A DNA stretch of 42,184 bases from an uncultured Bacilli bacterium (GCA_947630585.1 CANRIE010000001.1:1-42184); one strand, 5' to 3'; positions 16,451 through 42,184 are shown, counted from the first letter of the stretch. The notes: generated from the sequence alone by a model not told the origin. Made by a program: numbers and translations.

Positions 16451-18295
16451 TTAAGATAATCCTATAGTGTAAGCACTTTCAGGACTCATCCCATCTCCTC
16501 CAGTTATTATGACATTTGAATTTAAAGAGATGGATGGCCGAACGCCATACGTGCGTGATGAAGGTGTATCGCTACTTGAATAGCCATAGTTGTAGACGTT
16601 CCGCACATCAGAGACACTATATGGTGTCATTAACCATATATATGTTGAAGTATCATCATAACCTTTTCCTAACATTGCAGAAAACATTTCTCCTACTCTT
16701 GACAATCCTACTAATCCTTGCCATGTACTTGTAGTTCTTGTGCAACTACTTGTTGGGTCTGTTGTATTACTTTCACTACATATCGAATTTTTATAACTCG
16801 ATGATGATCCAACTTGTCCCAAATAGTATGTTCCAGTTGTTATATAATTTTCTAATTCACTTGTTAACCATATATTATTCAAATAATAACTCCAATATTT
16901 ATCATCACTATCAGTTGCAACTGATGTTGCCCAACTTACATTGCTTCCAAAATTTTTAGTTAATACTGCTCCACTATCATCTCTTATATAATCAATGCTT
17001 GTTAATTTTGTTGTTCTATTTTCTATTCCTACTATTCTGTATACTCTATTATCTACTTTGACATACTCGCCGTTTAATCTAGTGTTGATTAATTCTCCAC
17101 TATTTCCAGGCTCCTTATCTCCGCTTATTCGATATGGATTAGTCTCACTTCCATCTCCTCCTGATACTATTTCGATATTGGATTTTAGATTTATGGACGG
17201 GCGAACGCCATACGCATATGAAGAAGACACAGCTGCGAACAAGGAGCCGTTGGATTGCACATACCGCACATTTGTACCACTATATGGTGTTATTAACCAC
17301 CATATATAACCTATATTTAAATATCCGTTTGAATAATTTACATTTTTATAACTTTGATAATATTCATAAACATTTAATAATCCGACATCTCCGGTTATCT
17401 TTGTTGCAGTACTATCATCTATTGGTGGTCTTGCTGGAGTTGAATTTTTATCTTCAGTTACATTCCAACTTGTATTTTGAACGATTATTTCTTCATAATT
17501 ATATAAAGTATCCTTAAAATCTTCATTTAACCATTGATATATCCAAGAATTTTCATAAGTTGTATCTGCTCCCCAATTTATTGCTGTTATTTCATCTTGA
17601 GTTACTAATTTCATTGAACCATCTGGATTTATGGCTGTTATTCTCCATAATTTTCCGGAATACCAAACATAATTAAAATTAATTGTTTCATTATCTCCTG
17701 ATAAATAGATAGTTCCATCTTCATCAGTTATAGAATTAGTATCATCTAATTTATCAATAAAACTTTTTTCTAATACTTGATTTCCTTCAACAACTACTTT
17801 AGCTTTAAATTCTTTATTCATATAAGTATTATCAGCAGTCTCATCTAACCATACTTTAACATGATATTCACTTGTTTCTCCAACTTTTAATTTACCATTA
17901 TTTTCTATATATTTATCCTCATTTAATATTTTAGGTTCAGAATATCCTTTATTATCTTTATTTACTATATATTTTATAACTGTTTTAAATTCAGGTTCTG
18001 TTGATAACTCTTCTATATAAACATTATAATTAGCAACTAAATTACCTGTATTTTTTACTTGGAATACTAGTTCTTGTTCTAAAGATTTACCTTCTTCATC
18101 AGTCATTGGATACATATTAGTAAGATTTAAAAACTGAGTTTTCGAGTCAACAAATGTAACTTCTAATGTACCTACATTAATTACATAACTATTATTTGAT
18201 TCTTTAGTATACATTAAATAAGCATAACTAGAACCTAGTATTAATACTAAACTTAATGTTATTATCATTATTAATAAATTTCTTTTATTATTCAT
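16451..18295 (-). CDS. Secreted/surface protein, paralog 1 (614 aa): SipW/TasA-class signal peptide, N-terminal beta-rich domain, two WW(L)ITP...GVRPSI modules (DUF6273-like)
   Basis: The N-terminus MNNKRNLLIMIITLSLVLILGSSYAYLMYTKESNNSYVINVGTLEV resembles the TasA/camelysin signal pattern (h-region, then xYAYF/L, then N-x-F/Y...GTL). Two repeats end WWLITPYSG...YGVRPSINL...GGDGSETNPY and IWLMTPYS...YGVRPSISL...GGDGMSPESAY. Confidence 0.7.
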   Translation of the reverse strand: MNNKRNLLIMIITLSLVLILGSSYAYLMYTKESNNSYVINVGTLEVTFVDSKTQFLNLTNMYPMTDEEGKSLEQELVFQVKNTGNLVANYNVYIEELSTEPEFKTVIKYIVNKDNKGYSEPKILNEDKYIENNGKLKVGETSEYHVKVWLDETADNTYMNKEFKAKVVVEGNQVLEKSFIDKLDDTNSITDEDGTIYLSGDNETINFNYVWYSGKLWRITAINPDGSMKLVTQDEITAINWGADTTYENSWIYQWLNEDFKDTLYNYEEIIVQNTSWNVTEDKNSTPARPPIDDSTATKITGDVGLLNVYEYYQSYKNVNYSNGYLNIGYIWWLITPYSGTNVRYVQSNGSLFAAVSSSYAYGVRPSINLKSNIEIVSGGDGSETNPYRISGDKEPGNSGELINTRLNGEYVKVDNRVYRIVGIENRTTKLTSIDYIRDDSGAVLTKNFGSNVSWATSVATDSDDKYWSYYLNNIWLTSELENYITTGTYYLGQVGSSSSYKNSICSESNTTDPTSSCTRTTSTWQGLVGLSRVGEMFSAMLGKGYDDTSTYIWLMTPYSVSDVRNVYNYGYSSSDTPSSRTYGVRPSISLNSNVIITGGDGMSPESAYTIGLS

Positions 18296-23920: not shown

Positions 23921-25861
23921 TTATTCAGGTAGTCCAATAGTATAGGGACTGTCAGGACTCATACCATCGCCTCCAGTTATTATAACTTCTGGCTTTAAGT
24001 AGATGGATGGGCGAGCGTTAAAATCCTGGTAAGGAGTCTCATAATAAAGCACACCATAATCAAGCATAAAGAGTACATTGGAGCTATCGTAAGGTGTTAT
24101 CAAGCATATCATATCACTTGATGGTGAAGAACCACTACCTAATTGTACCGAAAACATTTCTCCCATTCTTGGTAATCCTACTTTCCCTGTCCATGTGCTT
24201 GTTGTTTTTACACAACTACTTGTTGGTGCGGTTGTATTACTTTCACTACATATCGAATTTTTATAACTTTCATAATTTACTTGTCCCAAATAGTATGTTC
24301 CTTTGGTTATATATTTATTTAATTCTTCAGTTAACCATGTTCCTTTAAAAGTTTCTTCATTAGTATTATTTAAATAATAGCCCCAACAATCATTACTTGC
24401 ACTGGCAACTGAATCTCCATAATTAGTTGTTCTTCCAAATTCTTTATTTAAGATTACATTATTGCTATCTCTTACATAATCGATACTTGTTAATTTGGTT
24501 ATGTTATTACCATTTTCATCTTTATCTATTCCTACTATTCTATATTTTTTATTATCTACTTCGACATACTCTCCACTTAATCTGGTATTGATTAATTCTC
24601 CACTATTTCCTGGCTCCTTATCCCCGTTTATACGATATGGATTAGTCTCGCTTCCATCTCCTCCTGCTACTATTCCGATATTTGATTTTAGATTAATAGA
24701 TGGACGAACGCCGAGTGGTTCCATACCCAAATTGGAGGAGATCCGATAGCCATCGTAGTGCACAAAATACACCTCATCATCTATTGATGGTGTTATTAAC
24801 CACCATGAAAAACCATTATTTAAATAACTATTAGATTCATCTTCTGCATTTTTCCAACTTTGATAATGTTCATACGAATTCAATGACCCTATAGCTCCTT
24901 TTACTATTGTTGCATTTTCATATATTGATGGGTTTGTGGCATAAACATCAGTTTTAGTTGCATTCCAAGAGGCATCTTTGACTATTATATTTTCATAATT
25001 ATAAAGTGTATCCTTAAAATCTTCATTTAACCATTGATATATCCAGGAACCTTCATACTTTGTATTATTTTTTTCATTCCAATTTATTGCTGTTATTGCA
25101 TCTTGCGTTATTAATTTCATGGAACCATCTGAATTTATGGCTACTATTCTCCATAATTTCCCTGAATACCATACATAGTTGAAATTTACACAATCGTTGG
25201 TTCCTGAAAAATAAATTGTATCATCACTTGGGTCTCCTGGAGTATAATTATCATCAGTTAAAGTTGGAGTACATGTATCTGTAGTATGAGTTTGAATGGC
25301 TTCTTTAATTTTATCCCCTAAAGGAATTGGCTTATCTAAATTTTGATTTCCTTCAACTACTACTTTTGCTTTAAATTCTTTATTCATATAAGTATTATCT
25401 GCTGTTTCCATAAGCCATACTTTAACATGATATTCACTTGTTTCTCCTACTTTTAATTTACCAGAACTCTCTATATATTTATCATCATTTAATATTTTAG
25501 GTTCAGAATAACCTTTATTATCTTTATTTACTATATATTTAATAACTGTTTTAAATTCAGGGTCAGTTGATAATTCTTCTATATAAACATTATAATTAGC
25601 AACTAAGTTACCTGTATTTTTTACTTGAAATACTAATTCTTGTTCTAAAGACATTCCTTCTTCATCAGTCATAGGATACATATCAGATAGATTTAAAAAC
25701 TCTGTTTTAGAATCCACAAATGTAACCTCAAGTGTTCCTACATTAATAACATAACTATTATTTGATTCTTTAGTATACATTAAATAAGCATAACTAGAGC
25801 CTAGTATTAATACCAAACTTAATGTTATTATCATAATTAATAAATTTCTTTTATTATTCAT
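23921..25861 (-). CDS. Secreted/surface protein, paralog 2 (646 aa), same architecture as 16451-18295
   Basis: The first ~172 aa are nearly identical to paralog 1 at both protein and DNA level. After that, conserved framework blocks (NFNYVWYSGKLWRI, SWIYQWLNEDFKDTLYNYE, GVRPSINLKSNI..GGDGSETNPYRI.GDKEPGNSGELINTRL, ITGGDGMSP.S.YTIGL) alternate with divergent segments. Confidence 0.7.
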   Translation of the reverse strand: MNNKRNLLIMIITLSLVLILGSSYAYLMYTKESNNSYVINVGTLEVTFVDSKTEFLNLSDMYPMTDEEGMSLEQELVFQVKNTGNLVANYNVYIEELSTDPEFKTVIKYIVNKDNKGYSEPKILNDDKYIESSGKLKVGETSEYHVKVWLMETADNTYMNKEFKAKVVVEGNQNLDKPIPLGDKIKEAIQTHTTDTCTPTLTDDNYTPGDPSDDTIYFSGTNDCVNFNYVWYSGKLWRIVAINSDGSMKLITQDAITAINWNEKNNTKYEGSWIYQWLNEDFKDTLYNYENIIVKDASWNATKTDVYATNPSIYENATIVKGAIGSLNSYEHYQSWKNAEDESNSYLNNGFSWWLITPSIDDEVYFVHYDGYRISSNLGMEPLGVRPSINLKSNIGIVAGGDGSETNPYRINGDKEPGNSGELINTRLSGEYVEVDNKKYRIVGIDKDENGNNITKLTSIDYVRDSNNVILNKEFGRTTNYGDSVASASNDCWGYYLNNTNEETFKGTWLTEELNKYITKGTYYLGQVNYESYKNSICSESNTTAPTSSCVKTTSTWTGKVGLPRMGEMFSVQLGSGSSPSSDMICLITPYDSSNVLFMLDYGVLYYETPYQDFNARPSIYLKPEVIITGGDGMSPDSPYTIGLPE

Positions 25862-26149: not shown

Positions 26150-26851
26150 TCATAATTTTAAAAATTCTTGATATAATCTGTCACATTCATCTTTATCCAT
26201 TGCAGGAAGTTTTCTTAAAGGATTTTTTAGATTTAATTCTAAATATTTTTCACTTCCAAGTTTATGATAAGGAATAAATGTTATATCCGTAATATTATTA
26301 ATCTTTTTTAGATATTCTTTTAATTCTTTAATATAGTTTAAATTATCATTAAAATTAGGAACTATTACTTGTCTTATGGAAACATCTTTTTTACTTTCAT
26401 TTAATATTTTAATAAATTCTTCTACTTTATTTATTTTCGATTTTGTTAAATATTCATATTGTTTTGGTTTAACATGTTTAATATCAAGAATTATTAAATC
26501 AACATATTTTAATAACTCTTTAATATCACCATTAAAGTCTCCTGCAGTATCAATTGCAATATGAATACCTTCTTTTTTTAATTTCTTACAAACTGATATT
26601 AAAAAGTTAGTTTGAAGAAGGGGTTCACCTCCTGAAAAGGTTATCCCACCTCCTCTTTTAAAATAATTTTTATAACGAAGTAACTTTTTTACTAATAAAG
26701 TATCGGTGTAATTTGGTTTTTGCATTTTAAACATTTCAGGGTTATGACAATATAGGCAACGTTTATTACAACCTGACATAAAGACAATCGTTCTAATTCC
26801 TGGTCCATCAACACTAGTTAGGGTTTCAATTGAAAACACTGACCCATTCAT
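26150..26851 (-). CDS. pflA: Pyruvate formate-lyase activating enzyme (radical SAM)
   Basis: The CNKRCLYCHNPE CxxxCxxC cluster and the GGGITFSGGEPLLQ motif. Its ATG overlaps the pflB stop by 1 nt. Confidence 0.92.
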   Translation of the reverse strand: MNGSVFSIETLTSVDGPGIRTIVFMSGCNKRCLYCHNPEMFKMQKPNYTDTLLVKKLLRYKNYFKRGGGITFSGGEPLLQTNFLISVCKKLKKEGIHIAIDTAGDFNGDIKELLKYVDLIILDIKHVKPKQYEYLTKSKINKVEEFIKILNESKKDVSIRQVIVPNFNDNLNYIKELKEYLKKINNITDITFIPYHKLGSEKYLELNLKNPLRKLPAMDKDECDRLYQEFLKL

Positions 26852-29385: not shown

Positions 29386-29464
29386 ATTATCACCCTCACT
29401 ACTATTTATTATCTAAAAGAGCTTTTTATTCTTTTTTTCCATTATACCCCTTCAAATTACCAAG

Positions 29465-29493
29465 ATTATAACATACTTTTTCTAAATATTCAA
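29465..29493 (-). promoter_or_regulatory. Consensus promoter of the 74-aa gene
   Basis: Minus strand: -35 TTGAAT (29493-29488), 17-nt spacer, -10 TATAAT (29470-29465). Confidence 0.5.
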
Positions 29494-29531
29494 GATATTT
29501 TTTTCGGAAAATTAAAGAAACTAATTAAAAA

Positions 29532-29726
29532 TTAGTCTCTATTTCTCTTTTCCCGTTTCCGAGCATTCTTGATTCCAGCTTTTTTAGCTTCTCTTCTTTT
29601 TACTCCTGGCTTATCATAAGCTTCTCTTTTTTTGAATTCAGAAGGGATACCATCTCTAGCAACTTTTTGCTTAAACTTTCTTAAAGCCCCATCTAGATTA
29701 CCGTTACGAACAGCAACATGTGTCAC
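29532..29726 (-). CDS. rpsU: 30S ribosomal protein S21
   Basis: (M)THVAVRNGNLDGALRKFKQKVARDGIPSEFKKREAYDKPGVKRREAKKAG...; GTG start preceded by SD GGGAGGGAG. The terminator hairpin GAGACTAAT-TTTTA-ATTAGTTTC spans the stop codon. Confidence 0.9.
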   Translation of the reverse strand: MTHVAVRNGNLDGALRKFKQKVARDGIPSEFKKREAYDKPGVKRREAKKAGIKNARKREKRNRD

Positions 29727-29850
29727 TCTTTACTCCCTCCCTTCGTTCATAAATCAACTAAAATTATAGCAGATTAATTTGAAAAATTCAACAAAATTCG
29801 TCATTTTTTTCTAAAATATTATATGTTTTTAGAAAAAAAAGGTCATTTTT

Positions 29851-30015
29851 TTAAATATTTTTCAAAATAAGTTCATATAAGCCTCTCATAAACACTCCTA
29901 AATAGCTACCTAAATTGAAAAATATTTTTAAAAATATTTCTAAAATAATAGCTATAAAAGGAAGTAAGATAATAGGTAAACAATAATTCACAAAAATATT
30001 TTTAATATTTAACAT
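29851..30015 (-). CDS. Unlisted 54-aa hydrophobic protein, candidate bacteriocin immunity protein
   Basis: MLNIKNIFVNYCLPIILLPFIAIILEIFLKIFFNLGSYLGVFMRGLYELILKNI. Its ATG overlaps the end of the upstream precursor gene (GAATGTTAA), which implies translational coupling. One or two TM segments. Confidence 0.45.
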   Translation of the reverse strand: MLNIKNIFVNYCLPIILLPFIAIILEIFLKIFFNLGSYLGVFMRGLYELILKNI

Positions 30016-30179
30016 TCGCATAATTTATTATCCTTTATCCGTCTAAATGAACTACCAACTGCTTGCCCAATTCCAAATATCACTTGAATGCATCCTGAAA
30101 TTGCTTCAACTAAAGCACCCGTGATACTTACTCCTCCTCCACAAGTCTTCATCATTTCATACTTTGTAATTTCTTCCAT
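30009..30179 (-). CDS. Double-glycine-leader bacteriocin precursor, peptide B (56 aa)
   Basis: MEEITKYEMMKTCGG|GVSITGALVEAISGCIQVIFGIGQAVGSSFRRIKDNKLCEC. SD AGGAGGA (30184-30190) lies 4 nt from the ATG at 30179. The leader has Glu at -8 and hydrophobic residues at -7, -12 and -15. The track's 73-aa version starts upstream with no SD. Confidence 0.7.
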   Translation of the reverse strand: MEEITKYEMMKTCGGGVSITGALVEAISGCIQVIFGIGQAVGSSFRRIKDNKLCEC

Positions 30180-30192
30180 AATATCCTCCTTC

Positions 30193-30336
30193 TTAATTCG
30201 TACATTTCTTTGGATTAACAAATCCATCAATTACTCCAGCTAAAAATACAGCTAAAGCTCCAATGCCAACAATAACCCAGCCAGTTATTCCTCCACCTTT
30301 TATTCTCATCATTTCATTTTTCTTCAATGTTTCCAT
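30193..30336 (-). CDS. Double-glycine-leader bacteriocin precursor, peptide A (47 aa), absent from the ORF track
   Basis: METLKKNEMMRIKGG|GITGWVIVGIGALAVFLAGVIDGFVNPKKCTN. SD GAGAGGAGA lies in the end of the upstream gene. The leader has hydrophobic residues at -4, -7, -12 and -15 and Glu at -8. Confidence 0.7.
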   Translation of the reverse strand: METLKKNEMMRIKGGGITGWVIVGIGALAVFLAGVIDGFVNPKKCTN

Positions 30337-30337
30337 T

Positions 30338-30742
30338 CTAATCTCCTCTCATTATTTTAACTATAAACTGGTATAAATTTTCTTCTTTTAGTAAAACATC
30401 AATTCTTAAACTTTTAGAATCTAAATAATATTTATTAAGTTCTAATTTTAAAGTATAAGTATTTCTAACTTCTTTAGTATCCAATACTTTATATTTAATA
30501 CTTTGGTCATTAATTTTAATATCTTTACTATCTAATATTAAATCAACATCATATTTTTCTAAATTAGAAATAACTAATATATTATTATTACTTATAATTC
30601 CATCATATTTAATTATAGTTTTATTTTTAACACATAATAAGAAAATTAATACAACAACAATAATATTTATAATTAAAAGTAGATACAAAAATTGATAATA
30701 CCCCTGATTTCTATTAAATTTTTGATATAAACTAGTATTCAT
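30338..30742 (-). CDS. Small membrane-anchored protein, putative minimal bacteriocin secretion accessory protein (134 aa)
   Basis: One N-terminal TM helix and a beta-rich C-terminal part. It overlaps the ABC exporter gene by 11 nt and stops 1 nt before peptide A. Confidence 0.45.
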   Translation of the reverse strand: MNTSLYQKFNRNQGYYQFLYLLLIINIIVVVLIFLLCVKNKTIIKYDGIISNNNILVISNLEKYDVDLILDSKDIKINDQSIKYKVLDTKEVRNTYTLKLELNKYYLDSKSLRIDVLLKEENLYQFIVKIMRGD

Positions 30743-32807
30743 AAATCATTCCTTTCTGGACTAAGATAAATCTATTATATAAATCTTGATTATTAAACCT
30801 ATGACTTATAACAATAATTGTTTTATCATTTAAATACTTAAATATAGCATCGAGTATCATTCTTTCCGCCTTAATATCTAAAGCACTTAACGCTTCATCA
30901 AATATATAAATATCACTTTTTTTAAGTAAAGCCCTTGCAAGAATTACTCTTTGACGTTCTCCTCCTGATAAGTTTCCGCCATCATTTTCTAAAGTCATAT
31001 TATCTTTTAAAATACTTCTTTCAATTATTTTATCAATTCCAAGTAAAGAAATAATTTTTAAATAATCATCGTAACTTGCATTAGCCCCAAGCATAATATT
31101 ATTATATAAGGTATCTGTAAATAAAACTTCATCTTGAGATACATAGGTAATCTTTTTTCTAATATCTTTTAAGTTATAGTTATAAACCTTTCGATCATCA
31201 ATTAGAATTTCCCCTTCATAATTATCAATGTATCTTGTAATTAGTTTCATTAAAGTAGATTTCCCACCACCTGACGTGCCATATAGTAATACTTTATCTC
31301 GTGCTTTTATTTCTAAACTTGGACACTTAATAATTTCATCAATCCCATTATAAGAATATTTTAAATCGGTTATCTTAATATTTCCAAATAAATGATAACC
31401 TGTAACTTTAGGATCGAGACTTAAACTCTCACTTTCAATATTTAATAATTCTTTAATTCTTGTAAATGAAACACTAGCTTCTTTAATTAATATTTGTAAA
31501 CCACAAATATTAGTTATAGGACTAAAATAATAACTAAGTAAACTATTAAATACTAGTAACTTTGATAAAACTAAATTGCCAGCAATTACTTCTTTAATCC
31601 CAACATAAATAATAACTAATAAACCAATTCCATAAACAATCTCTTTAAAGAAATTTTCAATATAAAAGTGATGATATAAATTAAAACTTTTATCAAGAAA
31701 TTTATCAAACTTATAACTTAATTTATCTCCTAAGTTATCTTCAATTTGCATTCCTTTAACAGTATTAATTGATGTTAATGATTCAATTAAATGATTATCA
31801 ACATCAGTTTCCATTTCTTTCATATCTTTTATTTTAGTATCCAAAAAACTATTATAAAATAAGATAATAAAGACATAAATAACTGTAATTATAAATGTAA
31901 TAAAAGCTAACTTTGAACTAATATTAGAAAGACAAATAAATATTAATATAAGTAAAACTAAATCAATTGCTAAAGTTACAAACACTTTACTAATTACATC
32001 GCGAATTTTAAAGACATCTCTTATTCTTGTTATAATATCGCCTTTTGTTCTATTTTTAAAATATAAATATGGAAGTCTTATGATATGGTTATATACTTCT
32101 TTAATTAAAGATTCATCTAGTTTATGATTAACATAATTTATTAAGTTATTCCGAAATAAATTAGTTAATTCTTTTAAGATAACAACAATTATTAGTAATA
32201 TTAATATATATAACATTGTCATTTTATTGTTATTACTAAATAAATCAATAAAGAATTGAAACTGATAAGATATTAGAATATTAGAAATAGTATAAACAAA
32301 CGAAAGAACAAAAAGTAGAATAAAGGTAAATTTAAATTTATTAATAATTGGAAATATTAAACTTAAGAAACTTTTTTCTTTAGCTTGTTTTAAAATTTCG
32401 GTTTTAGGCTTTAGGATAATATAAACATTAGTTGTTAGTTTATTCCAAGCGTCCATCCCATAAGACTTAAACCCTCCATCTGGATCCATGATGGTTATCG
32501 TTTTATCTTCTATTTTCGTGACAATTACAAAGTGGCCAAATTGTTTGTCAACTAAAATATGGGCAATTAAGGGAACGCTGTCTTTTAAATTAGAGTTTAA
32601 GATACCTTTTACAGCTTTTGCTTCAAATCCTAGTTTCTCGGATGCTGCAACTAATGAATAAACTGATACCCCTTCACTAGTAGTTTTGGTGATTTCCCTT
32701 AAATACTCACGAGTTACATATCCTCCATAATATTTCACTATTGAGATTAAACAGGAAACCCCACAATCTCTTAAATCAGTTTGCTTTGTATATGTTATTT
32801 TTCTCAT
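30732..32807 (-). CDS. Bacteriocin-processing ABC exporter with an N-terminal C39 peptidase domain (LagD/ComA/LcnC type), 691 aa
   Basis: C39 motifs are present: the catalytic Cys in QTDLRDCGVSC and His in FGHFVIVTKIEDKTITIMDP. There is a six-TM domain, Walker A GTSGGGKST, signature LSGGERQRV and Walker B IYIFDEALSALD. The ATG at 32807 follows SD GGAGGG; the track start at 32819 has none. Confidence 0.9.
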   Translation of the reverse strand: MRKITYTKQTDLRDCGVSCLISIVKYYGGYVTREYLREITKTTSEGVSVYSLVAASEKLGFEAKAVKGILNSNLKDSVPLIAHILVDKQFGHFVIVTKIEDKTITIMDPDGGFKSYGMDAWNKLTTNVYIILKPKTEILKQAKEKSFLSLIFPIINKFKFTFILLFVLSFVYTISNILISYQFQFFIDLFSNNNKMTMLYILILLIIVVILKELTNLFRNNLINYVNHKLDESLIKEVYNHIIRLPYLYFKNRTKGDIITRIRDVFKIRDVISKVFVTLAIDLVLLILIFICLSNISSKLAFITFIITVIYVFIILFYNSFLDTKIKDMKEMETDVDNHLIESLTSINTVKGMQIEDNLGDKLSYKFDKFLDKSFNLYHHFYIENFFKEIVYGIGLLVIIYVGIKEVIAGNLVLSKLLVFNSLLSYYFSPITNICGLQILIKEASVSFTRIKELLNIESESLSLDPKVTGYHLFGNIKITDLKYSYNGIDEIIKCPSLEIKARDKVLLYGTSGGGKSTLMKLITRYIDNYEGEILIDDRKVYNYNLKDIRKKITYVSQDEVLFTDTLYNNIMLGANASYDDYLKIISLLGIDKIIERSILKDNMTLENDGGNLSGGERQRVILARALLKKSDIYIFDEALSALDIKAERMILDAIFKYLNDKTIIVISHRFNNQDLYNRFILVQKGMIYEY

Positions 32808-32900
32808 TAGACCCTCCATATATAATATACACGAAAAAAAGTCGATTTTACCGAAAAATTTTTATTTTTTTTATTCCATATTTTATATATTTTTAAGACT

Positions 32901-32925
32901 AAAAAAAGGTGATATTTAATCACCT
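32901..32925 (-). terminator. Rho-independent terminator
   Basis: AGGTGAT-ATTTA-ATCACCT (32907-32925), followed on the minus strand by a T6 run. Confidence 0.55.
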
Positions 32926-32993
32926 ATATACATTTGATACACAATTTTTTCTTAATTTTGTATCTTATAAGAATTATTTTTCAAGTTTTTAAA

Positions 32994-33021
32994 GAAAAAA
33001 GATAGATAATTTTATCTATCT
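32994..33021 (-). terminator. Rho-independent terminator directly after the start-less ORF fragment
   Basis: AGATAGATAA/TTATCTATCT (33000-33021), followed on the minus strand by TTTTTT. The fragment's stop codon lies inside the stem. Confidence 0.55.
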
Positions 33022-33162
33022 AAAATTGCAACATGAACCTGGGTCAACATTACTTACTACATTTTCTTCACAGCAAGAATATTCAGGTCTATAAGTATGT
33101 TTGTAAATATGATGATTGATTATTCTAGTCCTAATTGGGCAAACATGAGATTGTTTCTTGAG
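33016..33162 (-). pseudogene. Start-less Cys-rich ORF fragment (48 codons), probable 3' remnant of a disrupted gene
   Basis: ...LKKQSHVCPIRTRIINHHIYKHTYRPEYSCCEENVVSNVDPGSCCNFR*. No ATG, GTG or TTG is in frame after the preceding TAA codons. It looks locally less AT-rich and ends in its own terminator. Confidence 0.3.
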
Positions 33163-33193
33163 TTAGTATTTTTATCTTAAAATTCCTGTTTTT

Positions 33194-33221
33194 GAATTGG
33201 AGAGACGCTTCTCTCCAATTC
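33194..33221. repeat. Palindrome GAATTGGAGAGA-CGCT-TCTCTCCAATTC, 17 nt beyond the DUF1016 stop
   Basis: A perfect 12-bp arm pair. It is related to the palindrome at 34278-34303. Confidence 0.85.
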
Positions 33222-33238
33222 AAAGCAACATTATTTTT

Positions 33239-34261
33239 TTATTCATTTTTATCATCATTGCTATTTAAAACTTTTTCTACTTCATTTATAAGTTGCTCTT
33301 TATCTGGAATATAATACGTATACGTTGATGCAAATATATTATTAGATAAGCCACCTAAAGCATATTCTAGTAAAACTTTATCTTTATCAGCACATAATAT
33401 TATTCCAACTGGTTTACCATCACCCTCACTATTTACATCTTTTTCATAATAATTTAAATACATATTCATTTGTCCTAAATTTTCAGCTTTCAACGAATTC
33501 ATTTTTAAATCTATTAAAACATACGATTTTAAATATTTATTATAGAAGACCATATCAACATAATAATCTGTATTATTTAAAGTTATCCGTTGCTGACTAC
33601 CCACAAACATAAAACCTTTGCCTAATTCTAGCAAAAAATCCTCAATATGTCTTATTAACTTATATTCCAAATCTTTTTCTAACAATGGTTTTTGTTCTTT
33701 TATTCCCAAAAACTCAAATACATAAGGTTGCTTAACTATATCACTTGGTTTTGAAATAATTTGACCTTTTTTTGATAATTCAATAACTTTTTCTTTATTG
33801 GATTTACCATCAGACAATAATAGCCTCTCAAATAATGAGGTGTCTAATTGGCGTCTAAGTTCTCTAACACTCCAATTTTCATTAATACACTCTTTTTCAT
33901 AAAAATTTCTTTTATCTTTATCTTGAATTATCATTAATTCTAAATAATGTGACCAAGATAATTTATCACTTAATTCTTCTAATTTTGGATAAGCCTTATA
34001 AAAAATTCTCATGTATTTTAAATTAGAAACTGAATATCCTTTTCCTAAATATTTTGTTAACTCTTTTGATAATTCTTTTAAAGTCTCTTGACCATATTCA
34101 AGTCTATTATTATATTCATTTTCATTTAAAACAATAATTTTTCCTATATTCCAATATACATAAACAATAGATTTGTTAATTTCTTGAGTTAAATTTATTC
34201 GAGTTTGATTTACTAACTTAGTTATTTCATTTATCATTTTATTATTTACTTTTTCTAACAT
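33239..34261 (-). CDS. DUF1016/YhcG-family PDDEXK nuclease
   Basis: The YhcG-type N-terminal region (VYVYWNIGKIIV...EYGQETLKELSKELTKYLGKGYSVSNLKYMRIFYKAYP) and a C-terminal PD-(D/E)xK core (YYVDMVFYN...VLIDLKMN). SD AGGGAGGA. Confidence 0.8.
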   Translation of the reverse strand: MLEKVNNKMINEITKLVNQTRINLTQEINKSIVYVYWNIGKIIVLNENEYNNRLEYGQETLKELSKELTKYLGKGYSVSNLKYMRIFYKAYPKLEELSDKLSWSHYLELMIIQDKDKRNFYEKECINENWSVRELRRQLDTSLFERLLLSDGKSNKEKVIELSKKGQIISKPSDIVKQPYVFEFLGIKEQKPLLEKDLEYKLIRHIEDFLLELGKGFMFVGSQQRITLNNTDYYVDMVFYNKYLKSYVLIDLKMNSLKAENLGQMNMYLNYYEKDVNSEGDGKPVGIILCADKDKVLLEYALGGLSNNIFASTYTYYIPDKEQLINEVEKVLNSNDDKNE

Positions 34262-34374: not shown

Positions 34375-34998
34375 TTATTCATCAATTCCATCAATACAAT
34401 TTTCATAAATCCAAGTTTTAATATCAGTCATATCATTTGTTTCATAATATTTTCTAAGCAAGGCTACATATTCATCTATTTTAGAAACTGGTACCATAAT
34501 TATCCCTTGACCATGTTTTATCATTTCATGGTTTGCAACTAAATTAGCAACTCTTTTATTTCCATCCTGAAACATTTGGTTTATTTGAAGCCAGCAAAAT
34601 ATACTAATAGATCTTTCTAAATCATTAGGAATTTTTAAGATATTTTTGAACTCAGTTTCATAATCACTTTCAATAGTCTTTGAAAGTTCAACATTTCCAT
34701 ATTTGCAAATCTCAAAATGAACTTTTTTGATAAAATCAATAGTTAAATCTTCTTGAATATTATTTAATACGTACTCCCAAGCATCAACTAAACCTTTTAA
34801 TTTAAACATATCAAGAACTGCAATTTTACCTGTATTAACATTATTAACAAAAGAATAGATATCTGCAAATGTTACTTTTATCCCTTCTAAAATAGCACTT
34901 TGATAGATATTATCAACTAATTTTCTTTTAGCAAAAAAGATATTATCTTTAATTTCCATGTTGTATTTATTTTTCACATAATTTGTCCTTTCTTTCAA
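34375..34998 (-). CDS. Fic/Doc (Fido)-like protein with a non-canonical active-site motif
   Basis: The C-terminal segment LQINQMFQDGNKRVANLVANHEMIKHG matches the Doc-type motif HxFxD(A/G)NKR, but Gln occupies the His position. The start is uncertain: TTG 34998, GTG 34977 with SD AAGGA, or ATG 34959. Confidence 0.5.
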   Translation of the reverse strand: MKERTNYVKNKYNMEIKDNIFFAKRKLVDNIYQSAILEGIKVTFADIYSFVNNVNTGKIAVLDMFKLKGLVDAWEYVLNNIQEDLTIDFIKKVHFEICKYGNVELSKTIESDYETEFKNILKIPNDLERSISIFCWLQINQMFQDGNKRVANLVANHEMIKHGQGIIMVPVSKIDEYVALLRKYYETNDMTDIKTWIYENCIDGIDE

Positions 34999-35088: not shown

Positions 35089-36603
35089 TCATTTAAAAGT
35101 TAATATAATATTTATTTCTTTATTTTCAGATATTTCTATTTTTTCAATTAAATTAGTAATTAAAATTCTTTCAAATACTTTAAAATTTAAAAAATCATCA
35201 ATATATTTATCAATTACTTGTAATTTATTATCACGATTATTTTCTTTATTTAATTTTAAATAATAATTAATTTTATCTTGATTATTCCTTAATTCCTCTT
35301 TCATTTTTAAGACAAGTCTTTCATATTGTTCAAGAGTAATAACTTGATTTAATTTATCAAGATAAATATTATCTAAATTTTCATTTATTCTTTTTATTTC
35401 TTGTTCTAATTTTTTTATTTCCAAGTTATAATCATCATCTTTTAAATCATTTAAAATATTATTTCTAATTTTATCTTTATTAACTTGCTTTAAGAATTTA
35501 GTTTTTAATAAACTAACAATAATTAATTCTAAATCATCATAGTTATTAGAGTGTGATGTGCAAAGTTTTTCTTTTCTATAGGTTCTAAAATAGTTACAAA
35601 TTGTATAACATCTATCGTCTTTCTTTCTTCTTGGAGTTACCGAAATTCTACTTGAGCACTCATGACAATACATCAAAGAATCTAATAAATGTTCTTCTTT
35701 TTTATCAAGCCTTGAAACATTTTTAGGTAACATTTTTAAAGTACTTTCAAATACACTTCTTTCTATAATTGCTTCATGAGTATTCTTAACTACAATAAAT
35801 TCATCCTCTTTATTTTTAACAACTTTCTTAATTTTATAATTTATTTTATTTCTTTTATTTTGAACTAAATCTCCAACATAAACTTGATTATGTAAAATCT
35901 CATTTATGGTTTTAGCATTCCAAGTATTATAATGAATAGTATTAATATTATCATAGTAAGACGATGGGGTTCTTATTTTTAAATTTGTTAACGCATCAGC
36001 AATTTGATAATAATTTAACCCATTAAGGGCTAAATTAAATATCTTTTTAATAACATTCGCTTGCTCTTTATTTATAACTAAATGATTCTTATTCTTTTTA
36101 TCTTTTGAGTATCCGAAGGGCGCTTTTGCACCAACGAACTTCCCTTCTTTCATCTTAGCCTTCAAACTTGATCTTATTTTTTTTGAAATATCCTTGGCAT
36201 AAAAATCATTCATGATTGCTTTAAAGGGTGCTATATCATTATTAGAATTATCAAGATAAGTATCTAAATTATCCGTTACTGAAATATATCTAATATTGTG
36301 TTCCGGAAAATATTTTTCAATTAATTCTCCCGTTTTTATATAATCTCTCCCTAACCTAGACATATCTTTAGTTATAACCATATTAATTTTTTTATCTTCA
36401 ATATCTTTAATTAATCTTTTAAAACTTGGTCTTTCAAAATTAGTTCCTGAATACCCATCATCTATATAAATATCATAAACAAAAATATTATTTTCTTTGG
36501 TATATTGAAGTAATAAACTTTTTTGATTCTTGATACTCTCACTTACCATCACCTTTATATCATCTTCTTTTGATAATCTAATATAAAGTCCGGCTTTATT
36601 CAT
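35089..36603 (-). CDS. Large serine recombinase (resolvase/invertase N-domain, recombinase domain, zinc ribbon, coiled coil), 504 aa
   Basis: GLYIRLSKEDD (catalytic-Ser context), DGYSGTNFERPSFKRLIKDIE, VITKDMSRLGRD, the Cys cluster CHECSSRISV...RCYTICNYF...CTSH, and a Lys/Glu-rich coiled-coil tail. Confidence 0.9.
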   Translation of the reverse strand: MNKAGLYIRLSKEDDIKVMVSESIKNQKSLLLQYTKENNIFVYDIYIDDGYSGTNFERPSFKRLIKDIEDKKINMVITKDMSRLGRDYIKTGELIEKYFPEHNIRYISVTDNLDTYLDNSNNDIAPFKAIMNDFYAKDISKKIRSSLKAKMKEGKFVGAKAPFGYSKDKKNKNHLVINKEQANVIKKIFNLALNGLNYYQIADALTNLKIRTPSSYYDNINTIHYNTWNAKTINEILHNQVYVGDLVQNKRNKINYKIKKVVKNKEDEFIVVKNTHEAIIERSVFESTLKMLPKNVSRLDKKEEHLLDSLMYCHECSSRISVTPRRKKDDRCYTICNYFRTYRKEKLCTSHSNNYDDLELIIVSLLKTKFLKQVNKDKIRNNILNDLKDDDYNLEIKKLEQEIKRINENLDNIYLDKLNQVITLEQYERLVLKMKEELRNNQDKINYYLKLNKENNRDNKLQVIDKYIDDFLNFKVFERILITNLIEKIEISENKEINIILTFK

Positions 36604-40614: not shown

Positions 40615-42093
40615 TTAGAAACTATCACATACTTCATGATTTTTGCCATAAATAGTTACACCAGGTGCTGTATAAGGTTCAAAATAATCTAACCATGGAT
40701 ATTTTTTTGTTGTATCTTCAGATGATGCTTCTATATTTTTAATTTCTGTACATGTTTTATCTATTGTTATTGAGGAAAGATTAATATTAGTATAATCTTT
40801 TTTTTCAAAGACACTAGCTCCTATGTATTGTATACCATTTCCTATTGTCACACTTGTTAATTGATTATAAGAAAAAGCGCCGACACCACTCCTCAAATTA
40901 CATTCTAAATCTATACAAATTGATCCGCCTATCGTTGTTACACTATTTGGTATATTTACATTTGTTAATTTATTATTTGCAAAAGCACTTGCTCCTATTG
41001 TTGTTACGCTATTTGGTATATTTACATTTGTTAATTTATTATTTGCAAAAGCACTATCTCCTATTATTGTTACACTACTTGGTATATTTACACTTGTTAA
41101 TTGATTATCAGCAAAAGCACTATCTCCTATTATTGTTACACTACTTGGTATACTTAAACTAATTATCCCTTTATTCTCAAATCCTACACCCCCACTTATA
41201 ATTGCAACTGGCTTAATAATAGAATAATCTTCTCCTAGTATTGTTACTTTAACCTTATCTATCACGCTTGGAATTACTACATCTTTTTGACAAGCATTAT
41301 CATAATCTAAATTTTTTCCACTATATTTTTCTTTTGTAATTTGTAAATCTTTAAATATCCCTAATTCAACTAACTTTTGAATTTGTGCTTGTGAAAATCT
41401 TCCTCTATCAAGCCAATTTTTAATTGTACCATCACCATCAAATTCACCGGTTCCATCACAAAAAACACGATATGTAATTTCATCGGGATTTTTTCCCAAT
41501 GGAATTGGAAGGTTTAATTTTGCCCATTCAACACAAGCATTTATCTCATTATCAGTTCTATCTTCATTATAAGTTGCTGTTGCTATAGTTCTTGTAAAAC
41601 AATTCATATAAGTTTTTTCATTAAAATCACCATTAACTGATACTTTAATACTTGCATAAACTTTATTATTCCAAGTATCCATATCATATATAGAATTATC
41701 TAAATTTCCTATTCTTGTTAATGGAGATATCCACATATATAATCGATACTTTCTAGTTATTTTATTTATGGTGTTAGCATTTATTGTATCTACCCATATA
41801 CTAGTTTTTTCTAAACTTGGATAACCCATTCTATCAAATATTACTTCTTCTTCATTATTATTTTTTACTTCTACTAGTTTAAATAATAATAAATCATCTC
41901 TTATTCTTTCAGTTCGATTTGTACTTACATCAGGAGTATCACCATAACTTAAAACTATTTCATAATTAATATCTTTAGAATAAGTATTTCGCCCATCAAT
42001 AGTAAATTCAAAATAAGGATCTGTTTCACTTACATATTCTTTAGGCATTGAATTTTCTATACTTAATGCTTTTGTTGGTTCTGTATATTTCAT
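40615..42093 (-). CDS. BspA-type leucine-rich-repeat protein with an N-terminal domain resembling that of the two secreted paralogs; no signal peptide (492 aa)
   Basis: The ATG at 42093 follows SD GGAGA and an extended -10 (TGgTATAAT, about 42115-42123). The LRR units are 22 aa: NIPSSVTIIGDSAFA(D/N)N(Q/K)LT(S/N)V. In-frame stops lie upstream, so no leader can be added. Confidence 0.7.
   Translation of the reverse strand: MKYTEPTKALSIENSMPKEYVSETDPYFEFTIDGRNTYSKDINYEIVLSYGDTPDVSTNRTERIRDDLLLFKLVEVKNNNEEEVIFDRMGYPSLEKTSIWVDTINANTINKITRKYRLYMWISPLTRIGNLDNSIYDMDTWNNKVYASIKVSVNGDFNEKTYMNCFTRTIATATYNEDRTDNEINACVEWAKLNLPIPLGKNPDEITYRVFCDGTGEFDGDGTIKNWLDRGRFSQAQIQKLVELGIFKDLQITKEKYSGKNLDYDNACQKDVVIPSVIDKVKVTILGEDYSIIKPVAIISGGVGFENKGIISLSIPSSVTIIGDSAFADNQLTSVNIPSSVTIIGDSAFANNKLTNVNIPNSVTTIGASAFANNKLTNVNIPNSVTTIGGSICIDLECNLRSGVGAFSYNQLTSVTIGNGIQYIGASVFEKKDYTNINLSSITIDKTCTEIKNIEASSEDTTKKYPWLDYFEPYTAPGVTIYGKNHEVCDSF
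40925..41165. repeat. About 3.5 tandem copies of a 66-bp coding repeat (LRR units)
   Basis: The unit GGTATATTTACA(T/C)TTGTTAAT... recurs at 40949, 41015, 41081 and 41147, a period of exactly 66 nt. Confidence 0.9.
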
Positions 42094-42184
42094 GTATATA
42101 TCTCCAGCTATCATTATACCAACTATTTTTTTATCCCAACTTTTACCTTATTTTCCTTATTTTATAAGGAAAACGTGTTTGATA

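Follow-up and report, generated by a model that had tools for sequence, protein, structure and literature searches.

A candidate two-peptide (class IIb-type) bacteriocin operon with a divergent peptidase-containing exporter in an uncultured, low-GC Bacilli bacterium

The stretch of DNA analysed here, hereafter the window, comprises 42,184 nucleotides (nt) of an uncultured Bacilli bacterium (GCA_947630585.1 CANRIE010000001.1:1-42184) with a GC content of about 26%, and our subject is a tightly packed run of five genes on its minus strand (32807->29851). In gene order these encode an ATP-binding cassette (ABC) exporter with an N-terminal C39 peptidase domain, a single-pass membrane protein of 134 amino acids (aa), two short peptides referred to as A and B, and a small membrane protein of 56 aa (Table 1). 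A preliminary description of the window, made from its sequence alone, had proposed a two-peptide (class IIb-like) double-glycine (GG) bacteriocin operon at this place, and all the features that it named were found where it had put them. It had also described the five genes as packed with overlaps or gaps of 1-13 nt, and the junctions do fall within this range: in gene order, the first two genes overlap by 11 nt, gaps of 1 nt and 13 nt follow, and the last two genes overlap by 13 nt. Judged by the features that can be tested in silico, the operon is probably a self-contained five-gene two-peptide (class IIb-type) bacteriocin system.

Table 1. Features of the operon and positions of the neighbouring rpsU gene in the window and in related loci
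Feature	Position	Strand	Length, sequence or remark
ABC/C39 exporter gene	32807->30732	minus	691 aa
Single-pass membrane protein gene	30742->30338	minus	134 aa
Peptide A gene	30336->30193	minus	47 aa
Peptide A leader	30336->30292	minus	METLKKNEMMRIKGG
Mature peptide A (predicted)	30291->30196	minus	32 aa; GITGWVIVGIGALAVFLAGVIDGFVNPKKCTN
Peptide B gene	30179->30009	minus	56 aa
Peptide B leader	30179->30135	minus	MEEITKYEMMKTCGG
Mature peptide B (predicted)	30134->30012	minus	41 aa; GVSITGALVEAISGCIQVIFGIGQAVGSSFRRIKDNKLCEC
Small membrane protein open reading frame	30021->29851	minus	56 aa
Conserved 24-nt leader	32808..32831	minus	TGTATATTATATATGGAGGGTCTA; AT-rich -10-like element and GGAGG ribosome-binding site, abuts ABC start
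Terminator-like hairpin and T-run	32907..32925	minus	about 100 nt upstream of the ABC gene
rpsU (S21), window	29532-29726		
rpsU (S21), L007	L007:9083-9277		
rpsU (S21), L010	L010:7034-7228		
rpsU (S21), L016	L016:823-1017		
rpsU (S21), L017	L017:995-1189		
rpsU (S21), L026	L026:1226-1411		
rpsU (S21), L028	L028:4284-4379		
rpsU (S21), L029	L029:2069-2263		
rpsU (S21), L030	L030:392-586		

Ribosome-binding sites of the GGAGG type stand in front of the ABC gene and of both peptide genes, and the two that had been noted as strong Shine-Dalgarno (SD) sequences are GAGAGGAG 5' of the peptide A gene and AAGGAGGA 5' of the peptide B gene. An open reading frame (ORF) finder adds four codons to the ABC gene, by way of an in-frame ATG at 32819, and makes peptide B 73 aa long. 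The shorter starts of Table 1 were adopted because a GGAGGG lies 5 nt 5' of the ABC ATG at 32807, because the gene calls on identical metagenome contigs are 691 aa for the ABC protein and 56 aa for B, and because the TTG-started extension of B is not conserved. The orthologous five-gene operons used for this and later comparisons come from three metagenome-assembled genomes, L007, L010 and L013, whose ABC proteins are 76%, 75% and 77% identical to that of the window, respectively; in all three the B orthologue begins at the window's Met, which agrees with the earlier statement that 73 aa is an over-extension.

Upstream of the ABC gene, the 24-nt leader TGTATATTATATATGGAGGGTCTA is nearly invariant in the four species represented by the window, L007, L010 and L013, and the DNA further upstream is not. 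Its conservation reaches past the ribosome-binding site proper, and the element may act as the promoter of the operon. A promoter scan, with 36 sites found against 32 expected, is uninformative in DNA as AT-rich as this. The hairpin listed in Table 1 (32925->32907) is the only terminator-like site within 29400-33400, and an equivalent hairpin with a T-run occurs in the same place in L007, L010 and L013; transcription of the preceding unit probably stops there, which would make the hairpin the upstream boundary of the operon.

The exporter matches the Pfam models Peptidase_C39 (98.5 bits), ABC_membrane (123 bits) and ABC_tran (95.5 bits), so the N-terminal C39 domain of the preliminary description stands, and the layout of a C39 peptidase, a domain with six transmembrane (TM) segments and an ATPase is that of a peptidase-containing ABC transporter (PCAT). 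Among solved structures it is closest to PCAT1 (4ry2, E 1e-111) and ComA (E 3e-92), and both align end to end. Cys15 of the exporter aligns with the residue that is Cys in PCAT1 4ry2 and Ala in the inactive mutant 7n87, His92 (in GHF) and Asp108 (in DPD) align with the corresponding PCAT1 residues, and Gln9, the Walker A motif, LSGG and the H-loop are all present. Because the catalytic residues of the C39 domain and the ATPase motifs are intact, both the peptidase and the ATPase are expected to be active, and the exporter is predicted to cleave the GG leaders and to export peptides A and B. It scores below the cut-off of every NCBIfam PCAT subfamily (320 bits against 853 for TIGR03796 and 309 against 500 for NF045998, the 'Mbov_0121 family'), is at most 34% identical to plasmid-borne PCATs, and by these measures is a divergent PCAT outside the curated subfamily TIGR01193. 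In one strain, 96-97% identical to the window, the last 12 or so codons of the ABC gene hold an insertion of about 1 kb (L005:505-1501; window 30768-30777), which encodes a 276-aa DDE_Tnp_1 transposase, is bounded by a 10-bp overlap resembling a target-site duplication, and parts the exporter from the four downstream genes.

The two peptides share a leader of the kind on which such exporters act. The double-glycine leaders proposed earlier are present as described: each is 15 aa long and ends in Gly-Gly (-2/-1), Glu occupies -8, residues -12 and -7 are hydrophobic, and position -4 is Ile in A and Thr in B. A regular expression for this leader (M-x2-hydrophobic-x3-[ED]-hydrophobic-x4-GG, with an ATG start and an ORF of 30-100 aa), applied in six frames, matches exactly two ORFs in the 42-kb window, those of A and B, and found no match in 200 mononucleotide shuffles of the window. 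The curated leader model TIGR01847 is approached only by orthologues, which reach 13.7-14 bits against a cut-off of 15.7, and the leader assignment is therefore one by pattern and not by a curated hidden Markov model (HMM).

Beyond the leader, mature peptide A is predicted to form a TM-like hydrophobic helix, with a mean Kyte-Doolittle (KD) hydropathy above 2 over residues 1-25, followed by a short polar tail. The alignment of the A family (n=14, no internal gaps) has F31, G34, D37, G38 and P42 invariant and C45 in 13 of the 14 sequences, which gives the hallmark F-x2-G-x2-D-G-x3-P-x2-C. The GxxxG motif of the mature peptide is G19-V-I-D-G23, and G-x-x-D-G is invariant throughout the alignment. 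Curated bacteriocin HMMs treat the two peptides differently, and they lend thin support to the bacteriocin assignment of the preliminary description: the A precursor passes TIGR03949 (lactobin A/cerein 7B) with 23.1 bits against a cut-off of 21.5, and B has no match. Peptide A was nevertheless not assigned to that family, since it passes in the window only, by 1.6 bits and largely through its leader; eight A orthologues score 14.7-20.8 bits, all under the cut-off, and mature A taken separately gives no match to TIGR03949. The models for lactococcin G-beta/enterocin 1071B (NF038034) and lactococcin G-alpha/enterocin 1071A (NF038035) score A and its orthologues at 12.5-29.6 bits, under their cut-off of 37.

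Mature peptide B is moderately hydrophobic at first and then strongly amphipathic and cationic, with a GxxxG motif (G23-Q-A-V-G27) followed by Arg-Arg and a C-terminal Cys. The AlphaFold2 (AF2) model of its precursor, made with an alignment of 106 family members, consists of a short leader helix (residues 6-14) and a long helix (21-49, mature residues 6-34), separated by a break at the Gly-Gly, with a predicted local distance difference test (pLDDT) score of 84-94 in the core. Word-indexed searches found two to three close relatives of A and B, and an exhaustive HMMER search, for which the B profile was built from three sequences, recovered 135 cluster representatives at E<1e-3, nearly all of 52-58 aa and matching end to end; with clustering at 50% identity, the B family thus counts at least 135 clusters. 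In an alignment of 106 of these sequences, G38, G42, R46, R47 and C54 are at least 90% conserved and both leader glycines are nearly invariant, the second strictly so. The GxxxG motif is followed by the basic pair in 93 of the 106 members, Cys is present in 104, lying 0-4 residues from the C-terminus in all but one, and exactly one Cys occurs in 80. The earlier observation of a GxxxG motif in both mature peptides therefore extends to their families, the motif being invariant in the 14 A sequences and at least 90% conserved in the 106 B sequences, and ranking with the best conserved features of each family.

No curated family covers the B family: the 106 members gave scattered weak matches to bacteriocin or leader models of NCBIfam and Pfam in at most 12 members, among them weak matches to NF038034 in 12 and to NF038035 in 6. 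A search of the B profile against PDB sequences returned nothing but a faint match of the leader to CtA, the cargo leader of PCAT1, and full-text literature searches for the motifs (GSSIRR-type and IDGFARP-type) returned no relevant paper. Neither mature sequence had been recognised as a named bacteriocin in the preliminary description, and indeed no curated family, PDB relative or literature record was found for them. No plasmid among 72,556 matched peptide B in a tblastn search, and a plasmid or phage origin was rejected on this ground together with the distance of the exporter from plasmid PCATs.

Comparison with the orthologues in L007, L010 and L013 by the Nei-Gojobori method gave ratios of non-synonymous to synonymous substitution rates (dN/dS) of 0.12-0.22 for the ABC gene, 0.16-0.45 for the 134-aa gene, 0.13-0.31 for peptide A, 0.18-0.32 for peptide B and 0.22-0.64 for the 56-aa gene, with proportions of synonymous differences (pS) of 0.36-0.67 and near-saturated dS. 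On these values all five ORFs are protein-coding genes under purifying selection. ORFs of 47 and 56 aa are short, one of them falls under the usual ORF cut-offs and the genome is AT-rich, which together could suggest that the small ORFs arose by chance or are relics in decay, leaving the ABC transporter as the only functional gene. However, dN/dS for A and B stays within 0.13-0.32 at pS 0.4-0.67 against all three orthologues, both peptide ORFs are intact in every locus examined and have strong SD sequences, no comparable ORF arose in the shuffles, and the B family extends over its 135 clusters. These conservation data effectively refute the chance-ORF explanation, to which we give almost no credence.

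The 134-aa protein has a strong N-terminal TM helix, and in the window the first 11 nt of its gene overlap the end of the ABC gene. It has no match in Pfam or NCBIfam, its profile found nothing among PDB sequences, and ten relatives, all of about 134 aa, were recovered. Its AF2 model, of moderate confidence (pLDDT 71), shows the TM helix, a small beta-rich outer domain and a C-terminal helix; a Foldseek search with the model against the PDB gave no significant fold match, the best hits being unrelated small barrels (E 0.037). Assignment as a membrane-fusion protein of the HlyD/LcnD/ComB type was considered and rejected, with no support from Pfam, NCBIfam, the PDB profile search or Foldseek. 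The gene lies between the ABC and peptide A genes in most loci and overlaps the ABC stop in all those checked. Its product has 126-163 aa in L022, L024, L025, L026, L028 and L029, is reduced to a TM helix of 41-44 aa in four loci with 19-27% GC (L017:256-381, L018:834-968, L019:601-735 and L020:977-1111), and is absent in L027 (L027:862-875). Because of these helix-only versions and this absence, the outer domain appears to be dispensable, and the protein may be regarded as an exporter-associated subunit. The only family recurrently matched by its homologues is NF045999 ('MAG1140 family'), with weak, nearly end-to-end matches in five of nine homologues (best E 0.004, below the 35-bit cut-off) and no match for the window's own protein.

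The last gene of the operon, which overlaps the 3' end of the peptide B gene by 13 nt, encodes one clear TM helix followed by an amphipathic C-terminal segment. Orthologues are present in L007, L010, L013, L016 and L018-L020, and in the distant L025 and L023, homologues missing from the gene calls overlap B at its 3' end and carry the common motif NLG-x-Y-x-G-T-F-I-R. Searches of Pfam and NCBIfam found no similarity to known immunity proteins. Position and size are those expected of a class IIb immunity gene, and on this basis the 56-aa membrane protein is a putative immunity protein.

The arrangement of the two peptide genes is constant. An A-like gene lies directly upstream of a B-like gene in all 18 loci that could be read (window, L007, L010, L013, L015, L016, L017-L020, L022, L024/L023, L025 and L026-L029), at a distance of 9-47 nt or, in L027, with a 4-nt overlap; an exporter of the same type precedes the pair in every locus with upstream DNA present, even where it is only 37-45% identical to that of the window, and one peptide without the other was not seen in any locus with both positions readable. 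In L015 (112-420) the database gene call P0064 (102 aa) fuses A and B across the stop codon of A, and the locus does not translate to P0064. Loci in which several bacteriocins share an exporter are common, and A and B have no sequence relationship beyond the leader; they might accordingly be two independent one-peptide (class IId) bacteriocins, or a bacteriocin with an inactive or helper peptide, that happen to use one exporter. The retention of the A-to-B order, short gaps and a single immunity-like gene across 18 widely diverged loci, the presence of exactly one invariant GxxxG motif in each peptide and the loss of the C-terminal Cys from both partners in L029 all speak against this explanation, which we consider quite improbable.

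Class IIb bacteriocins are characterized by adjacent genes for two different peptides, synergy between these peptides, a double-glycine leader of 15-30 residues on both preforms, a dedicated ABC transporter that removes the leader by means of a C39 domain with catalytic Cys and His, a GxxxG (or AxxxA/SxxxS) motif in both mature peptides that is linked to helix-helix pairing, and an immunity gene in the same operon (PMC2850506). The lactococcin G operon unites both peptides, immunity, the ABC transporter and an accessory protein (PMC2850506). The window has adjacent peptide genes, 15-aa GG leaders, a C39-ABC exporter and GxxxG in both peptides, and with the constancy of the A-B pair across the 18 loci the class IIb-like reading of the preliminary description holds at the level of sequence. 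Under this reading, precursors A and B would be translated from their adjacent genes in roughly equal amounts, and their leaders would dock in the C39 domain of the exporter and be cut after the Gly-Gly, so that mature peptides of 32 and 41 aa, with calculated monoisotopic masses of 3228.77 Da (A) and 4238.20 Da (B), would be pumped out, probably with the help of the 134-aa single-pass protein, which would be translationally coupled to the exporter. Outside the cell the very hydrophobic A helix and the amphipathic B helix could pack through their GxxxG motifs (G19-G23 in A and G23-G27 in B), and the inserted helix pair would permeabilise the membranes of related bacteria. The invariant Asp of A and the Arg-Arg of B are candidates for an inter-peptide salt bridge, and the 56-aa membrane protein may shield the producer.

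The genomic position of the module bears on this interpretation. Downstream of the operon lie rpsU, encoding ribosomal protein S21 (29726->29532, with a promoter-like site of its own), an ORF for a 74-aa coiled-coil protein, and the genes for pyruvate formate-lyase (PFL) and its activase; there is no clear terminator between the module and rpsU in the window. In 10 of the 14 loci with readable downstream DNA the module stands immediately upstream of rpsU, even where S21 is down to 50% and the exporter 37-45% identical, and this linkage points to long vertical inheritance. Several of our observations weigh against a bacteriocin. Bacteriocin loci seldom show vertical linkage to a housekeeping gene across so deep a divergence, as this one does to rpsU, and the evolutionary rate of the peptides is about as low as that of the exporter; the picture resembles a core function more than a typical mobile bacteriocin locus with fast turnover. 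Mature A and B each have a net charge of +1, bacteriocin HMM support is weak (none for B, a narrow pass for the A precursor and none for mature A), the 134-aa protein is unlike the known accessory proteins of the LcnD/ComB type, and the exporter scores 406.2 bits over the full length of TIGR01193 against a cut-off of 523.85.

The deep rpsU linkage, the similarity of dN/dS between peptides and exporter, and the low net charge would also suit a non-antimicrobial role, in which A and B, as membrane-active or signalling peptides for the producer's own use, are exported for instance to signal between cells, to act on the envelope or in a biofilm, or to mark kin; GG-leader/C39-ABC systems are also used to export pheromones such as ComC, and ComA is the second-best solved relative of the exporter. 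Signalling would call for a receptor, however, and neither the 42 kb nor any related locus has a gene for a sensor kinase, a response regulator or another receptor. The preliminary description had noted the lack of a two-component system, and HisKA, HATPase_c, Response_reg and LytTR domains are indeed missing from all window ORFs of at least 90 aa, as are histidine kinases and response regulators from the gene tables of related loci; a GG-leader pheromone system of the ComC/BlpC/PlnA type was rejected for this reason. In addition, the mature peptides, with 32 and 41 aa, TM-length helices and GxxxG motifs, are unlike pheromones of 17-25 aa, the conserved small membrane protein overlapping B has the look of an immunity gene, and the locus disrupted by an insertion sequence (IS) in one strain indicates that the module is dispensable. 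We consider a non-antimicrobial role unlikely. Modification of the peptides was also considered: no peptide-modifying enzyme is present, and no radical S-adenosylmethionine (radical-SAM) gene lies in the operon or in related loci. A radical-SAM-modified product of the ribosomally synthesized and post-translationally modified peptide (RiPP) class was rejected, since the sole nearby radical-SAM gene (26150-26851, 233 aa) overlaps the stop of the PFL gene and is the PFL activase.

The conserved cysteines raise the further possibility that the mature product is covalent, a heterodimer in which a disulfide links the C-terminal Cys of A to that of B (A-S-S-B; calculated mass about 7464.96 Da). Exactly one Cys occurs in 13 of 14 A peptides, 0-4 residues from the C-terminus, as it does in most B peptides. 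In L029 (1601-1924) the Cys is missing from B and also from its partner A, which ends in …TPIYNN, and in L010 (6406-6751) A lacks the Cys and B keeps it; no other case of a missing Cys occurs in the loci read, and one concordant double loss and one discordant case are too few to decide on covariation. In L013 (3165-3809) a 214-aa lipoprotein with a lipobox (LTGC) and a CPWC thioredoxin motif is encoded directly upstream of the exporter, and it partially matches TIGR01295, the PedC/BrcD disulfide isomerase model (E 6e-8; 32.7 bits against a cut-off of 120). The disulfide is suggested by the single Cys in each presumably secreted partner, the joint loss in L029 and the PedC/BrcD-like lipoprotein of L013. 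Counting against it are the discordant L010 pair, the three Cys residues of the window's own B, the lack of a PedC/BrcD-like oxidoreductase in the window and in the other loci, and the probably anaerobic life of the hosts. A covalent heterodimer is not known to us for class IIb bacteriocins, and a limited literature search found no report of one; on balance we hold the A-S-S-B linkage to be unlikely. A wider proposal, in which an A-S-S-B product is handled by a PCAT with a new miniature single-pass accessory protein and the module descends vertically beside rpsU across an entire low-GC lineage, is likewise unlikely as a whole.

Upstream of the operon the window contains a YhcG/DUF1016 PDDEXK nuclease (33239-34261), a 207-aa protein with a Fic-like FQDGNKR motif and no HMM match (34375-34998), and a 504-aa large serine recombinase with distant Ccr/XisF-type NCBIfam matches far under the cut-off (35089-36603). 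These three genes are not beside the operon in L007, L010 and L013, which makes it probable that the segment 33239-36603 is a mobile element that has integrated here. Elsewhere, at 16451-18295, 23921-25861 and 40615-42114, the window encodes three probable surface proteins, namely two large DUF6273 paralogues and a protein with BspA-type leucine-rich repeats, and LRR_5 paralogues flank the module in L010. No tRNA genes or Rfam families were found in the window. The closest genome record, L007 (CAYTGK010000003.1), is collinear with the window over the operon, rpsU and the PFL gene and has a GC content of about 25%; given these properties, its label 'uncultured Muribaculaceae bacterium', or its binning, is probably wrong.

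If the peptides are active, they would represent a two-peptide bacteriocin family that is new and, it appears, large, with at least 135 clusters at 50% identity on the B side, for which there is no curated model and no literature record was found. Genome mining often yields new GG-leader bacteriocin candidates. The producers in this case are uncultured, very AT-rich organisms known here from metagenome assemblies alone, and the natural variation among their peptides, with one GxxxG motif each, an Asp in A facing an Arg-Arg in B and one Cys each, could be read as a map of two-peptide recognition. The locus also offers a minimal PCAT accessory protein for study, and it raises the question of how a bacteriocin-type locus comes to be tied to the S21 gene over deep divergence. 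HMMs built from the A and B family alignments would let annotation pipelines find peptides that lie below the usual ORF cut-offs.

Among characterized transporters, PCAT1 of Clostridium thermocellum (4ry2, 7t54-57) and ComA of Streptococcus (8hf4) have the same three-domain architecture as the window exporter over its full length, and they have in common with it the Gln, Cys, His and Asp of the C39 site and a GG-leader cargo gene nearby. Unlike this comparison set, the window exporter falls under the cut-offs of all NCBIfam PCAT subfamilies, and we know of no translationally coupled partner of the 134-aa type for PCAT1, whereas the window exporter has one. A lead to a comparable pair is given by Mycoplasmopsis, where the Mbov_0121-family peptidase ABC transporter (NF045998) matches the window exporter over its full length and the MAG1140 family (NF045999) resembles the accessory homologues; with every score under its cut-off, the likeness would suggest a related PCAT and partner and no membership. 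Literature searches for Mbov_0121 and MAG1140 returned nothing useful.

With regard to the peptides, TIGR03949 members and peptide A both have a GG leader followed by a Gly/Ala-rich hydrophobic stretch, but the model does not recognise the A hallmark. Bacteriocins assisted by PedC/BrcD (pediocin PA-1 and brochocin C) have a thiol-disulfide gene resembling that of L013, and A and B carry conserved Cys; as these are mostly single, any disulfide would be intermolecular, unlike in pediocin-type peptides, for which, to our knowledge, none is known. The closest parallel is with lactococcin G-type operons. LcnD-type accessory proteins are larger than the 134-aa protein of the window, which is further reduced to a TM helix of 41-44 aa in some relatives, and the hosts of lactococcin G are lactic acid bacteria, whereas the window host is an uncultured organism of about 26% GC. 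The window also differs from class IIb operons in that its mature peptides are unrelated to the named class IIb peptides (NF038034 and NF038035 give sub-cut-off matches, mainly through the leader), the exporter gene comes first, each peptide has one conserved C-terminal Cys, and the locus is chromosomal, beside rpsU. As in lactococcin G-type operons, however, two adjacent GG-leader peptide genes are accompanied by a C39-ABC exporter, an accessory gene in the operon and a small membrane protein gene of the immunity type beside the peptides, with one GxxxG motif per helical mature peptide. Lying outside any curated family, the mature peptides are, as far as their sequences indicate, best described as in effect a new peptide family within the known class IIb-type design.

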